Shown here: piece by piece, positions 22,729 through 27,067 of the stretch
How the letters are laid out: every line of letters begins with the position of its first letter
How positions within the stretch are numbered: the first letter of the stretch is position 1
Assembly: GCA_045599805.1 (NCBI GenBank)
Contig: JAZRWQ010000059.1
Location: forward strand, 1-36,532
Origin: Eubacteriales bacterium
Lineage (GTDB): Bacteria; Bacillota; Clostridia; Oscillospirales; UMGS1783
Length of the DNA stretch: 36,532 nt
Direction: 5' to 3'
Made by a program: the position numbers and the translations under genes
The notes under the pieces: model-generated
The model's database searches: none
Told to the model about the DNA's origin: nothing
Seen by the model: the letters and a program-made list of their open reading frames with translations, nothing else

Positions 22729-22746
22729 AAAAAGAAGCGCCCTTTA
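22729..22746. repeat. Left arm of a split palindrome (ancestral bidirectional terminator)
   Basis: AAAAAGAAGCGCCCTTTA starts right after the AraC stop codon. It is the exact reverse complement of 27050-27067. Confidence 0.75.
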
Positions 22747-22814
22747 GCGCAGTGTTCATAAAACAGTAATACTGAAAATGAGCACTGTTGCTATCGGGTT
22801 GGCTAAGAAAAAGT

Positions 22815-22864
22815 AAAGCGTGATATTTCATACCATTAGGTGTGGAGTATTACGCTTTTTTCAT
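22815..22864. terminator. Hairpin with flanking A/T tracts near the left end of the island
   Basis: 11-bp stem AAAGCGTGATA/TATTACGCTTT with one G-U pair and a 22-nt loop, followed by a T run. Could terminate read-through from AraC and also the - strand ORF. Confidence 0.4.
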
Positions 22865-22865
22865 T

Positions 22866-23144
22866 TTATCTGCGTTTTCCTTTGCGGCCGCGTTGATTAG
22901 TGCCGGACTTTAATTTCTTTGAACGGTTCAGAGCCTTCATAAGAACAGTGAATTCTTCTGGCGACAGGCTCTTGTAGTCCAATCCAAGTTGATGACATAA
23001 GAGAAAAAGCTGTGTCTCTTTTGCGCTTCCTTTGAAATTGGTAGCTTCTTCAATCCCTTCTCGGATCGTATCTGCAACAGTTGTTTCCGGAGCGGTATCA
23101 AAATCCTTTGCGTGAGACAAGCGGATAACATGTTTTGCCGACAC
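22866..23144 (-). CDS. Hypothetical island protein (GTG start; possibly a gene fragment)
   Basis: The ORF has a basic C-terminal tail and no motif I recognise. The only start is GTG and I see no clear Shine-Dalgarno. Confidence 0.3.
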   Translation of the reverse strand: MSAKHVIRLSHAKDFDTAPETTVADTIREGIEEATNFKGSAKETQLFLLCHQLGLDYKSLSPEEFTVLMKALNRSKKLKSGTNQRGRKGKRR

Positions 23145-23189
23145 GCATAATGTGTTCGCCGGATGATGCGCTCGGAAAGGATGAATTTT

Positions 23190-23399
23190 ATGGATATCAG
23201 AAATGAGATCAAAGCTTATATCGTCCGTGAGGGCGTGACCATGAGCGAGGTTGTTGACCGCCTTGCTTATGAATATGACTGAAGCAGCAGTGTTCTAAAC
23301 CTGTCAGGCAAGCTTCGTCGTGGTTCTTTGCGCTATCAGGAGGCCATCGAGCTTGCAGATGTGCTGGGCTATGACATTGTCTGGCAGAAACGCAAATGA
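23190..23399 (+). pseudogene. XRE/HTH-like small regulator interrupted by an in-frame TGA
   Basis: ATG 23190 has AAAGGA upstream. The 69-codon frame is continuous apart from TGA at 23280-23282 (MDIRNEIKAYIVREGVTMSEVVDRLAYEYD*SSSVLNLSGKLRRGSLRYQEAIELADVLGYDIVWQKRK). From memory, relatives have Trp at this position. Confidence 0.55.
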
Positions 23400-23464
23400 G
23401 GTTATCGCTATGAAATCAGTTTTGAGAAAACGAGGTAAAAATGCCTATGGTTTGAGGAGGATAT

Positions 23465-24073
23465 ATGGGAAACATTTATGGTTATGTGCGTGTGAGCACA
23501 AAAGAACAAAATGAGGATCGCCAGCTGATTGCGTTGCATGAGGTGGGTGTTCAGCAGAAAAACATCTTCATGGACAAGCAGTCTGGTAAGGACTTCAACC
23601 GTCCACAGTATAAAAAGCTGCTGAAAAAGATAAAGCCCGGCGATCTGCTCTACATAAAGAGCATTGACCGTCTGGGCAGAAATTACGAAGAAATTCAAAA
23701 TCAGTGGCGCATCATTACCAGAGAAAAGAATGTCGATATTTATGTGATTGATATGCCATTATTAGATACCCGGCGCGGAAAGGATCTGCTGGGAACCTTT
23801 ATTAGCGATCTTGTATTGCAGTTACTCTCTTTTGTTGCGGAAAACGAAAGAACAAATATAAAACAACGACAGGCAGAAGGCATTGCAGCTGCAAAAGCTA
23901 AGGGCATACGTTTTGGAAGACCGCCAAAACCATTATCGGATAACTTTCATGAGGCATATCAAAGATGGAAACAGGGGGAAATAACCGGAACTGCTGCAGC
24001 TAAAGAATGTGGAATGCCCTTGTCAACCTTTCGGTATAGAGCTGAAATTTACGAAAATGCCAAGTTGTTGTAA
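23465..24073 (+). CDS. Small serine recombinase (resolvase/invertase, Hin/Gin-like) with C-terminal HTH
   Basis: [16 protein letters not shown] catalytic-Ser motif, SIDRLGRN, and E-helix [24 protein letters not shown] Shine-Dalgarno upstream. Confidence 0.9.
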
Positions 24074-24094
24074 GAGAGGCCTTTTTACAAGAAT

Positions 24095-24107
24095 GTGTAC
24101 TTTTCTG
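24095..24107. repeat. Left inverted repeat of the candidate invertible segment
   Basis: GTGTACTTTTCTG matches the reverse complement of 24225-24237 (GTGTACTTTACTG) at 12 of 13 positions, with a perfect 9-bp core. Confidence 0.4.
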
Positions 24108-24136
24108 CAAAAGTGCATAATACACCTATTTAACTT

Positions 24137-24937: not shown

Positions 24938-24955
24938 GAGAGGATAGCATAAATA

Positions 24956-25573
24956 ATGAAGAGAAAGCTTACACTTGCATGTATAGTAATGCTCATAGTA
25001 GAAACAGTCTGCTTATTTATTCCATACTGCTTTGTTGAAGAATATTGGAAATATGAGGATTCTATCGTATATCATGGCCAATCCAGACTAATGAGGGAAA
25101 CTCCCGTTAGTATTTTCGGAATTTCTACTGCAACAGGAAAAGTATTAGCGATAATTCTCTTGATTTCATTATTAACCGCTGCTTTAGGATTTATAATGAC
25201 TTATGTCAAGAAACAAGAAAAGATTGGTAAATTCATCAATTTCGTGCCCTTGATTAATCTTGTTTTATTAGCTGTTTTTGCATTTTATGCATATGCCTTT
25301 GCGGAGAATGATACAGTATACGCACGATTTGAATGGAATATTAATTGGTTGTTCTATATCATCATTACACTTCAGATCGTTACTTGTATCTTTGGCCTGT
25401 TACTTCAATTTGAAAAGGAAGAGAAAGTCAAGACAATTCCGAGCAAGGTTGAAAACATAAATTCTATTGAGAGTGCTGCAGAAAAAGTAAGGCAGTATGA
25501 AGAGTTACTTGATTCTGGAGTTATTTCGCAGGAAGAGTTTGAAACCAAGAAAAAACAGATCCTCGGTCTGTAA
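24956..25573 (+). CDS. Four-TM membrane protein with C-terminal SHOCT domain
   Basis: Four hydrophobic helices, then VRQYEELLDSGVISQEEFETKKKQILGL (SHOCT-type) at the extreme C-terminus. Confidence 0.7.
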   Translation: MKRKLTLACIVMLIVETVCLFIPYCFVEEYWKYEDSIVYHGQSRLMRETPVSIFGISTATGKVLAIILLISLLTAALGFIMTYVKKQEKIGKFINFVPLINLVLLAVFAFYAYAFAENDTVYARFEWNINWLFYIIITLQIVTCIFGLLLQFEKEEKVKTIPSKVENINSIESAAEKVRQYEELLDSGVISQEEFETKKKQILGL

Positions 25574-25635
25574 ATGAAAGTAATTATGGGAGGTCGCAAG
25601 TAATTGCCCTCCCATTTTCTATATTGGAGGTATTT

Positions 25636-26247
25636 ATGGCTGGGATGACAGGCTTCATACATAGTTGCGTTGATGCCAAGCTTGAGAAGGCACCACATCA
25701 TTTAACATTGAAGGAATCCGGTTTTACAGATGATCAAATAAAAGTCCTATGGGATTTTTATGTATCACGGTCATTTGCTGCTGCCACCGGAAATCCAATA
25801 TCATTAGAGACTTGTGGCTGGCATGATACTCAGAGTAAAACTGATGGTTTTCCGGCATTAGAAAGTGTACTTTGCTCTACAGCCGGATTATCATCGTTCT
25901 GCATTATCAGAAATAAAACCATTAAAGATACCTTGAGTCAGATGGATTTGAGCAACGAGCGGATATGTGTATCTCATCCAAGAGCTGTGTTAACACAAAA
26001 CTTCACATATGAGTCGGATGAAAATGAAACTGTGAAAATTAAGTCTGGCGAAAGTCGTATAAATGCAATATTCCGTCATATTCGAAACTCTTTTGCACAC
26101 GGGAATACATATTTTTTCCCTACAGGGAATTGTTTGCTGATTGATAAAGATGGATCAAAAACGACCGCAGCAATTCTTGTCCCTAAGCAAGCGTTATGGG
26201 ACTGGATATCTATTGTTGATAAAAATAAAGCATATTACGATTTATGA
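25636..26247 (+). CDS. Hypothetical protein with an Rx4H HEPN-like motif (candidate RNase/abortive-infection effector)
   Basis: INAIFRHIRNSFAHGN contains R-N-S-F-A-H (Rx4H), in an IRNxxAHG context typical of several HEPN families. I chose ATG 25636, with GGAGG upstream, over TTG 25624. Confidence 0.55.
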   Translation: MAGMTGFIHSCVDAKLEKAPHHLTLKESGFTDDQIKVLWDFYVSRSFAAATGNPISLETCGWHDTQSKTDGFPALESVLCSTAGLSSFCIIRNKTIKDTLSQMDLSNERICVSHPRAVLTQNFTYESDENETVKIKSGESRINAIFRHIRNSFAHGNTYFFPTGNCLLIDKDGSKTTAAILVPKQALWDWISIVDKNKAYYDL

Positions 26248-26254
26248 ATTCTGC

Positions 26255-26290
26255 GCGATCAACTGTGAAAGGTTGATCGCTTTTTTATTT
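26255..26290 (+). terminator. Strong intrinsic terminator closing the three-gene operon
   Basis: 9-bp stem GCGATCAAC/GTTGATCGC (26255-26263 with 26272-26280), 8-nt loop, then TTTTTTATTT. Confidence 0.8.
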
Positions 26291-26308
26291 GGAGGAGGTG
26301 ATGCTCAT

Positions 26309-26581
26309 ATGGGAGAAAGAAAAATGCCCGAGTCTTTGGAAGCCCTGATGGAAGAAAAACAGAACGCCGAAGCAGAGCTTAACTACTGGGCTCATAAAGA
26401 AAAAATCCTTCGTCATCAGATAAAGGATCTCGCAAGAAAGGAACGAACTCACAGACTTTGTGTACGCGCTGGGATGCTAGAAAGCTTCCTTAAGGAGCCA
26501 GAACTGTTATCGGATGATCAGGTAATGGAACTTTTGAAAATTGCATGCAGAGAGCGCAAAACAGATTGCAGCGAACCGTAA
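26309..26581 (+). CDS. DUF3847-like coiled-coil protein of conjugative elements, probably 3'-altered by a deletion junction
   Basis: KERTHRLCVRAGMLESFLKEPELLSDDQVMELLK matches my memory of DUF3847 proteins. GGAGGAGG Shine-Dalgarno precedes ATG 26309. The last ~12 codons overlap the recombinase-fragment frame. Confidence 0.5.
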   Translation: MGERKMPESLEALMEEKQNAEAELNYWAHKEKILRHQIKDLARKERTHRLCVRAGMLESFLKEPELLSDDQVMELLKIACRERKTDCSEP

Positions 26582-26984
26582 GGCACTTGAACGAAGTGAG
26601 AAGCGTATCTCGGAGCTTAAGCGCCTGTTCATTAAGATTTACGAGGATAACGCAAGCGGTAAACTGAGTGATGAGCGTTTTGACATGATGAGTCAGACCT
26701 ATGAGGCTGAACAGAAAGAACTGGAAGCTGAGGTCATCCGCCTACAGAAAGAAATCGAAGTACAGGAAACACAGATTCAAAACATTGAGAAGTTTATTCA
26801 GAAATCCAGCCAGTATGTCGGCATCGAGGAACTTACATCCTATGTCCTTCATGAGCTGGTAAAGGCCATCTATGTAGATGCACCGGATAAGTCCAGCGGC
26901 AAGCGCAGACAGCATATCCACATCCAGTATGATGGACTGGGCTTCATCCCTCTGAATGAGCTTTTAACAAGTGAAAAGGCGTGA
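26541..26984 (+). pseudogene. C-terminal fragment (DUF4368-type tail) of a large serine recombinase; the catalytic N-terminus is missing
   Basis: SAKQIAANRKALERSEKRISELKRLFIKIYEDNASGKLSDERFDMMSQTYE...ELVKAIYV...IHIQY is the coiled-coil/C-terminal region of TndX-like recombinases. The frame is closed by TGA at 26535. No resolvase domain lies upstream. Confidence 0.65.
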
Positions 26985-27011
26985 CCAAAGCCACGCCTTC
27001 CCATCTTTTTT
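26976..27011 (+). terminator. Hairpin with a downstream T run after the recombinase fragment
   Basis: Stem AAGGCGTG/CACGCCTT (26976-26983 with 26992-26999). The T6 run starts 5 nt after the stem. Confidence 0.4.
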
Positions 27012-27049
27012 CAATTCTTAAACATTTACTGTTTTACGACGCACCGCCA

Positions 27050-27067
27050 TAAAGGGCGCTTCTTTTT
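27050..27067. repeat. Right arm of the split palindrome (ancestral bidirectional terminator)
   Basis: TAAAGGGCGCTTCTTTTT is the exact reverse complement of 22729-22746. It overlaps the ADH stop codon (27066-27068). Confidence 0.75.

Follow-up and report, generated by a model that had tools for sequence, protein, structure and literature searches.

The DNA analysed here is a 36,532-nt stretch from a Eubacteriales bacterium (contig JAZRWQ010000059.1 of assembly GCA_045599805.1, hereafter the window), and it carries an island of 4.3 kb between two convergent host genes, one for an AraC-family regulator and one for an iron-containing alcohol dehydrogenase (Fe-ADH, or ADH). It is very likely that the island is the degraded descendant of an element encoding a large serine recombinase with a DUF4368 domain, and that it was inserted in the loop of a terminator common to the two genes. 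The 18-nt sequence AAAAAGAAGCGCCCTTTA (22729-22746) begins directly after the AraC-family stop codon TAA (22726-22728), and its perfect reverse complement TAAAGGGCGCTTCTTTTT (27050-27067) overlaps the stop codon of the Fe-ADH gene on the minus strand (27066-27068), with 4303 bp between the two arms. The initial annotation of the sequence had described these arms, their distance and their position at both stop codons, together with an AT-rich island between them, and all of this was confirmed, the GC content being 34-45% in the island compared to 45-52% in the flanks. The window holds exactly two copies of the arm, even when three mismatches are allowed, and two copies were found in none of 100 dinucleotide-preserving shuffles of the window.

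When the two arms are rejoined, they form a stem of 14-15 bp (-23.6 to -24.1 kcal/mol, z about -7), which is followed by TTCTTTTT on the plus strand and by TTCTTTTTTT on the minus strand and abuts or overlaps both stop codons. By these sequence features the rejoined arms are a predicted bidirectional intrinsic (Rho-independent) terminator between convergent genes, and the hairpin of A-tract, GC-rich stem and T-tract that had been proposed initially was recovered, at about -24 kcal/mol and with T-runs on both strands. The junctions in their present state fold no better than shuffles (z -0.5 to -1.7). As reconstructed, the host site would read AAAAAGAAGCGCCCT-T(T/A)-AAGGGCGCTTCTTTTT. Only two relatives of the AraC-family protein were present in the protein collection, at L001 and L002 (L numbers denote the loci compared with the window). 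In L002, where the AraC protein is 77% identical, the AraC and ADH genes are convergent, 37 bp apart and separated by an empty site, and the spacer forms an uninterrupted hairpin with a 14-bp stem, AAAGCGTCATCGCA-ATTT-TGCGATGACGCTTT (-25.6 kcal/mol). In L001 (AraC 96% identical) a hairpin of -16.3 kcal/mol stands directly after the AraC stop codon. Relatives without the island had been expected from the initial annotation to keep the hairpin, and they do, with stems that differ from the arms in the window. A hairpin also follows the ADH stop codon in two of three more distant ADH loci. No relative turned up when the genome collection was searched with the AraC protein, neither the AraC nor the ADH product was retrieved by exact look-up, and a DNA pattern for the 3' end of the ADH gene had no match; the nearest ADH relative besides the window's own protein was 83% identical.

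The inverted repeat extends inward in imperfect form, over 26 nt at 88% identity (22729-22754 and 27042-27067) and, after a shift of one base, over a further 14 nt at 93% (22756-22769 and 27026-27039). A repeat that runs on to about 41 nt could be taken to mean that the 18-nt arms are the terminal inverted repeats of the element, as in a classical transposon, an explanation that we consider extremely improbable in the light of how the ends look elsewhere. A search with the recombinase remnant of the island gave 80 loci, mostly from Lachnospiraceae and Oscillospiraceae. In the close relatives L004-L007 and L010 the right ends are 91-93% identical at the DNA level, the alignment to the window stops at 27048-27050, and the flanks beyond the junction differ in each of them (e.g. 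TTCTGGGTTGC, CCTGCGGTCTCC). On the left side, L084, which holds the sole close homologue of the 92-aa open reading frame (ORF) adjoining this end (94% identical), matches the window up to ...CACTGCGCTA and then diverges, and a pattern scan with the left-end motif gave 118 further matches, six of them in the window's lineage (L124, L127, L128, L129, L139, L200) and all with different flanks. The outer 15-16 nt of each arm are host DNA and do not travel with the element, because copies of both element ends elsewhere carry unrelated flanks. Arms that travel with the element had been named initially as the outcome that would speak against a split terminator; the flanks beyond the junction are unrelated in L004-L007, L010, L084, L124, L127-L129 and L139, and conservation of the ends reaches only to 22746 and 27049. 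The island junctions have no direct target repeat beyond 2 nt, and a stem such as that of the rejoined arms is a generic hairpin, a metagenome scan having found it in at least 120 unrelated contigs and in none of them beside an AraC or ADH gene. The classical transposon is characterised by repeats that travel with it and by a direct target duplication, and the island has neither.

The inward, imperfect part of the inverted repeat, in contrast, constitutes the element's own ends (22746-22769 and 27026-27049). The idea that the 18-nt arms are a split terminator therefore needs a small correction: each arm has just 15-16 nt of pure host flank, and its inner 2-3 nt belong to the crossover core, joined on the left by the first base of the element. 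The island thus comprises 22746-27049 plus one copy of a 2-nt core on each side, with boundaries fixed to within 1-2 nt. The register of the core comes from the junctions of the whole family, about 190 in number (75 right and 117 left), on which the target rule discussed below also rests. The 75 distinct right junctions have 23 conserved element positions followed by three that are almost exclusively A/T, and core positions 25-26 are TT in 38 and AA in 23 (TT or AA in 61 of 75); past the core come about ten G/C-rich positions and then a T-run. On the left side, 117 distinct junctions show the mirror image, with TT in 62 and AA in 26 (88 of 117), a C-rich stretch and then an A-run. The cores match on both sides in elements with both ends on one contig, TT/TT in L167 and L201 and AA/AA in a family of 280-bp elements, which fits a site of 24-nt arms around a 2-nt core. 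This is the usual geometry of serine integrase sites, and the island has it too, its imperfectly inverted 24-nt arms standing around a 2-nt core. Other crossover positions (CA, GC or CC within the conserved ends) were considered and rejected; they need very unequal arms or a 5-nt host sequence shared by the window and L084, and they conflict with the family profiles that place the core at 25-26 on both sides.

The enzyme responsible can be recognised from what is left at the right end of the island, where homology to intact recombinase genes begins abruptly at 26544. Of the 577 residues of the L201 recombinase, the remnant matches 430-577 and no others; L201 is a complete element of 4368 bp in which a DUF3847 gene lies directly upstream of the intact recombinase gene, and the island's DUF3847 gene aligns to residues 3-75 of the 98-aa homologue in L201. 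A deletion of about 1.7 kb thus took the first approximately 430 recombinase codons, and with them the catalytic and DNA-binding parts of the integrase, together with the end of the DUF3847 gene. In the L004/L005 lineage the recombinase genes are cut by contig ends. In the L201 recombinase, Resolvase and Recombinase domains are combined with a zinc ribbon and DUF4368, and an alignment covering 91% of its length gives 36% identity to annotated TndX; this points to a TndX-like large serine recombinase of the DUF4368 clade as the island's integrase. Intact relatives with the same ends have all four domains, and the island retains only the DUF4368-bearing last 147 codons; it descends from such an element as a degraded, non-autonomous derivative.

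The only intact recombinase gene of the island is another one, at 23465-24073, and it could be thought that this small serine recombinase carried out the insertion. We find this very unlikely, since the protein consists of a Resolvase catalytic domain and a short tail, without the Recombinase and zinc-ribbon domains of integrating enzymes. The same ends occur with a large serine recombinase directly beside the right end in 80 loci, and they also occur in elements that have no small resolvase at all (L201, L116, L154 and the 280-bp elements). Inside the L031 element, a pair homologous to the small resolvase and its neighbour gene is carried as cargo, and many elements with the same ends have neither gene; the small recombinase is cargo, not the integrase. 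The initial proposal that a serine recombinase used the terminator as its attachment site is upheld as to the class of the enzyme, but it is the large recombinase now present as a remnant, not the intact small resolvase.

The choice of a terminator is not particular to the window. With a right half-terminator defined as a G/C-rich stretch followed by a T-run, 9-18 nt from position 23 of the conserved end, the right flanks qualified in 56 of 75 cases (75%) compared to 6.9% of control positions (p 6e-49), and the left flanks formed the mirror image in 75 of 117 (64%) compared to 7.5% (p 1e-54). When the flanks of two-ended elements were rejoined, 13 of 22 placed the junction inside the loop of a fold that reached -15 kcal/mol or lower, as against 33 of 462 mismatched pairs (p 1.5e-7); the clearest hairpins were those of L154, L167, L201, L102 and L070. 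Junctions also lie at the ends of genes. When counted as 8-90 nt past the end of an ORF that reads toward the junction and has 100 codons or more, this position was found for 60 of 108 left junctions (56%, random positions 12.5%, p 1e-24) and 40 of 73 right junctions (55%, random positions 12.3%, p 7e-17). The 75 right and 117 left flanks are all distinct, as is typical of multi-targeting enzymes. The family targets terminator-like hairpins located where genes end, and in many cases, like that of the window, the two neighbouring genes are convergent.

Such a distribution could also arise if the recombinase inserts almost anywhere and terminator loops are over-represented since harmless insertions survive selection. 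The clade has been described as multi-targeting with relaxed specificity (PMC10083194), and terminator loops are plausible neutral sites; intergenic spacers, however, hold many other neutral positions, and the register is fixed to the base, with the A/T core, the G/C start and the peak of the T-run at constant distances on both sides. In addition, a non-coding miniature family of 280 bp has the same core, and some of its copies have hairpins that can be rejoined. A register this constant speaks for a site that is recognised by the enzyme and against one that was simply spared by selection, and we regard the survival explanation as unlikely.

Under the preferred explanation, insertion in the terminator loop, the excised circle would carry an attachment site in which two 24-nt arms, imperfect inverted repeats of each other, enclose the 2-nt core (TT in this lineage), and its junction is expected to read ...ACGACGCACCGCCA-TT-AGCGCAGTGTTCAT... 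The recombinase would have paired this site with palindromic double-stranded host DNA, the bidirectional intrinsic terminator between the AraC-family and Fe-ADH genes. According to the established chemistry of the enzyme family, both sites would be cut at the core in the A/T-rich loop, the half-sites rotated and the ends rejoined, which would leave the halves of the terminator parted by the element with no duplication beyond the core.

Several points weigh against this explanation. The steps of recombination at the island are deduced, and no circular form was observed. The two cores of the window differ by one base, TT on the left and TA on the right, while strict serine recombinase chemistry predicts no difference; this may be due to a later point mutation in a decaying element or to a tolerated mismatch. 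An empty site of the same species was not found in any collection, and the intact terminator of this genome is available only as a reconstruction. The hairpins of L001 and L002 use a GCGTCATC stem, unlike the arms in the window. In the family as a whole, about a quarter of the right flanks, about a third of the left flanks and 9 of the 22 rejoined pairs have no hairpin, most of the nine being 280-bp elements.

Part of this discrepancy, the unlike stems, may be connected with the route by which the island reached the genome. It is possible that the insertion in the terminator occurred in a diverged lineage and that the island and its flanks arrived here later by homologous recombination, a route that is compatible with insertion in the terminator loop and to which we give a little less than an even chance. 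The window and L001 differ by 16 mismatches in 1725 nt up to 22499 (20776-22499, 99% identity), and from 22500 to the AraC stop codon their identity falls to about 71%, where L001 and L002 remain 90% identical to each other. This drop at the 3' end of the AraC gene suggests a diverged haplotype, probably acquired by homologous recombination, that includes the island together with 230 nt or more of flank on its left, and such a haplotype would explain why the stems of the relatives differ from the arms in the window. The comparison, however, depends on a single close relative, which differs on its downstream side and is truncated there by the contig end, and the converted tract could be that of L001; the right-hand breakpoint is beyond the reach of the comparison, and since the stretch 19700-20650 is also mosaic, recombination tracts are common here and need not concern the island. 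The genomes are mosaic on the kilobase scale. The breakpoint within the AraC gene is sharp (window 22369-22500), and the region of a cysteine synthase-like (PALP-domain) gene at 19700-20650 is 74-91% identical to L001, followed by 1.8 kb at 99%. In L001 (10793-10929) the hairpin after the AraC stop codon is intact, and what comes next, as far as the contig end, is unrelated sequence in which GTCGA(C/T)A motifs recur, and not the ADH gene; this may represent another insertion at the same spot or a rearrangement.

The island is not the only member of the family that lacks a working recombinase. Among the two-ended elements one is complete (L201), three have only a recombinase remnant (L070, L116, L158) and five carry cargo with no recombinase (L102, L117, L154, L167, L172). 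Of those without a working recombinase, L116 measures 4013 bp, L154 3185 bp, L102 1791 bp and L117 and L172 about 0.9 kb, and the cargo of these elements is varied (an AraC regulator and a 697-aa protein; a 107-aa ORF and membrane proteins; a small membrane protein). The ends of the family act as a general vehicle for cassettes. Twelve further two-ended elements are copies of the non-coding 280-bp family, one of them 220 bp (L094, L106, L109, L121, L122, L135, L143, L159, L160, L162, L175, L189), with a median pairwise identity of about 90%, an AA core on both sides, a different flank for each copy and several copies per genome bin (CAMVEX01, JAILMJ01). In appearance they are miniature elements mobilised by a large serine recombinase. 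The recombinase-less and miniature relatives suggest that elements with these ends are moved in trans, and the island may accordingly not be immobile: its ends are near the family consensus, the right arm being one position off the close relatives and the left arm identical to other copies. With both ends intact, a truncated recombinase and an intact relative in L201, it is a putative trans-mobilisable derivative that might still be moved by a full-length recombinase related to its own. The ends are different in a plasmid-borne relative from Pusillibacter, which is more distant (47% identical).

Taken one step further, it could be that for one subclade of TndX-like DUF4368 recombinases, found in Clostridia of gut and rumen, intrinsic terminators in general serve as attachment sites. 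The enzymes would recognise an A/T loop with a TT core that lies between a C-rich and a G-rich stem, the whole bordered by A- and T-tracts, and the same ends would have spawned cassettes, of which the island would be one, and 280-bp miniatures that spread in trans. We hold this generalisation only tentatively, as somewhat less probable than its opposite. If true, terminator targeting would let the elements land safely at thousands of gene ends, and a clade known for relaxed multi-targeting would gain a definable class of target, the terminator hairpin at the gene end, as a safe harbour that spares genes. Such a rule would help to delimit these elements in metagenome assemblies of Clostridia, would explain the tolerance of high copy numbers, including those of miniature derivatives, and could guide the choice or design of landing sites for recombinases as tools of genome engineering. 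It also raises the mechanistic question whether the enzyme reads the composition of a double-stranded palindrome or an extruded structure. The window itself offers a decayed example of an element whose kind is known, and the target rule is the more interesting result.

The closest known systems are Tn5397 with TndX and Tn4451/Tn4453 with TnpX. They share with the full-length family member L201 the enzyme class and the set of domains, they have the recombinase gene at one end of the element and a 2-nt core without longer duplication, and their close relatives use many insertion sites; next to the recombinase there is a DUF3847 gene, a companion also known from integrative mobilizable elements. 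In contrast, the L201 recombinase is only 36% identical to TndX and the copy in the window is without the catalytic part. The core reported for TndX and TnpX is GA, whereas the core here is TT or AA, and the targets here are overwhelmingly terminator palindromes, for which we found no report in those elements. Links between DUF4368 recombinases and integrative mobilizable elements have been described (bioRxiv 10.1101/2024.01.18.576133; PMC5704250). According to Durrant et al. (2022, PMC10083194), DUF4368 marks a multi-targeting clade of large serine recombinases that includes TndX-like enzymes, and the 21 sites targeted by one of its members align at a TT core, with T- and A-rich sequence around it. 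This agrees with the core and the outer tracts of the window's family, but the specificity described there is relaxed or confined to a short motif, while the targets here combine G/C-rich inverted stems with A- and T-tracts and lie at gene ends. Neither terminator nor palindrome occurs as a word in the main text of that paper, and its preprint lacks hairpin, inverted repeat and dyad. In a full-text literature search we found no report of terminator, hairpin or palindrome targeting by serine recombinases, although papers outside the searched set may have one, and no description of such miniature elements for serine recombinases.

Insertion in palindromes is known from other enzymes, as ISPpu9 inserts in repetitive extragenic palindromes (PMC8450116, PMC12288879). 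IS1397/ISKpn1 and ISPpu9/ISPpu10 (IS110 family) resemble the elements studied here in that they insert at the centre of an intergenic palindrome and avoid genes, but their DDE or DEDD transposases are unrelated and partly RNA-guided, and their targets are a specific repeat, not terminators generally. Bacterial class C group II introns home to positions set by the stem-loops of intrinsic terminators; they do so by RNA-based retrohoming, however, and insert downstream of the hairpin and not in its loop.

The insertion should have consequences for both host genes. The hairpin at 22815-22858 is the first strong hairpin with a T-run downstream of the AraC gene, and AraC transcripts should stop there. 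ADH transcripts would meet only the weaker hairpin at 26976-26999, the first one for read-through from that side, which has a short T stretch on the ADH strand and was not called a terminator in that direction. Replacement hairpins inside both island ends had been noted initially, and both are real; they are nevertheless the terminators of the element's own genes, and the right one is doubtful as a replacement due to its poor T tail. The island thus predicts changed 3' ends for two host transcripts and explains the presence of a foreign segment of 4.3 kb in the genome. The inner arms of the element are C-rich left of the core and G-rich right of it, like the target stems. We considered that the GC-rich element end and the flanking half-stem rebuild a terminator at the junction, and this was rejected, the hybrid junctions folding no better than those with shuffled or foreign arms and showing nothing beyond generic G/C pairing.

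The coordinates of the island, its genes and the flanking host features are given in Table 1.

Table 1. Features of the island and its two convergent host neighbours, in window coordinates.
Feature	Position	Strand	Basis
Host AraC-family regulator, reads toward the island	21934-22728	+	ORF; Pfam HTH_18 and HTH_AraC
Left half of host terminator (attB left arm; A-tract and GC stem), AAAAAGAAGCGCCCT	22729-22743		Perfect complement of 27053-27067
Left core dinucleotide TT	22744-22745		Register of family junctions; TT in 7 of 9 left ends of the lineage
Element left end, 24-nt attP arm P', AGCGCAGTGTTCATAAAACAGTAA	22746-22769	+	Kept in L084, L124, L127, L128, L129, L139; imperfect inverted repeat of 27026-27049
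Strong hairpin of the element with T-run, ends the 92-aa gene	22815-22858		Terminator scan; -27.3 kcal/mol, z -8.5; conserved in L084
92-aa ORF adjoining left end	22866-23144	-	No family match; 94% identical copy beside the same left end in L084
Small DUF6471-like pseudogene	23190-23399	+	Translation compared with L031 homologue; weak DUF6471 match
Intact small serine recombinase, resolvase/invertase type, 202 aa	23465-24073	+	Pfam Resolvase 6.8e-31; without Recombinase or zinc-ribbon domain
Candidate invertible promoter segment, inverted 17-nt copies 24090-24106 and 24226-24242	24090-24242		Surrounds the best promoter-like match of the region
Two cargo genes, SHOCT-domain membrane proteins	24287-24937, 24956-25573	+	Pfam SHOCT in both
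207-aa cargo ORF, RNSFAH (Rx4H) motif	25624-26247	+	Sub-threshold pEK499_p136 HEPN match, E 0.055
DUF3847 gene without 3' end, left side of internal deletion	26309-26543	+	Pfam DUF3847
Large serine recombinase remnant, C-terminal 147 codons with DUF4368	26544-26984	+	Pfam DUF4368
Hairpin ending the recombinase gene	26976-26999		-12.7 kcal/mol, z -4.2; conserved in related right-end loci
Element right end, 24-nt attP arm P, TTACTGTTTTACGACGCACCGCCA	27026-27049	+	Conserved in L004-L083 up to 27049, flanks diverge beyond
Right core copy TA	27050-27051		Register of family junctions; lineage normally TT (L004 and L010 are TT)
Right half of host terminator (attB right arm), AAGGGCGCTTCTTTTT	27052-27067		Absent from the element's other right junctions
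Host iron-containing alcohol dehydrogenase, reads toward the island	27066-28229	-	ORF; Pfam Fe-ADH; recorded product 387 aa

Decay is also seen in the DUF6471-like gene, which has an in-frame TGA at 23280-23282 where the intact homologue in L031 has Trp. The 207-aa ORF stands after the two genes for SHOCT-domain membrane proteins, and judged by its motif and its profile match it is possibly HEPN-like, a toxin or a defence nuclease; defence-system profiles (PADLOC) gave no match to the cargo genes of the island, and a megablast of the island against plasmids and phages had no match either. Just downstream of the small serine recombinase gene, the two inverted 17-nt copies bracket a segment of 119 bp. 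The motif (AGAAAGTGTACTTTTCT-like) has a third copy at 25860-25876, and three copies compare with 0.07 expected, a number reached in none of 100 shuffles; it was sought in L031 and is absent there. As a lead only, the segment could be considered a candidate invertible promoter for the SHOCT genes.

The start of the ADH gene is ambiguous: its longest ORF begins with TTG at 28328 and overlaps the end of a uracil phosphoribosyltransferase gene by 131 nt (28198-28328), whereas the recorded product of 387 aa starts at 28229.

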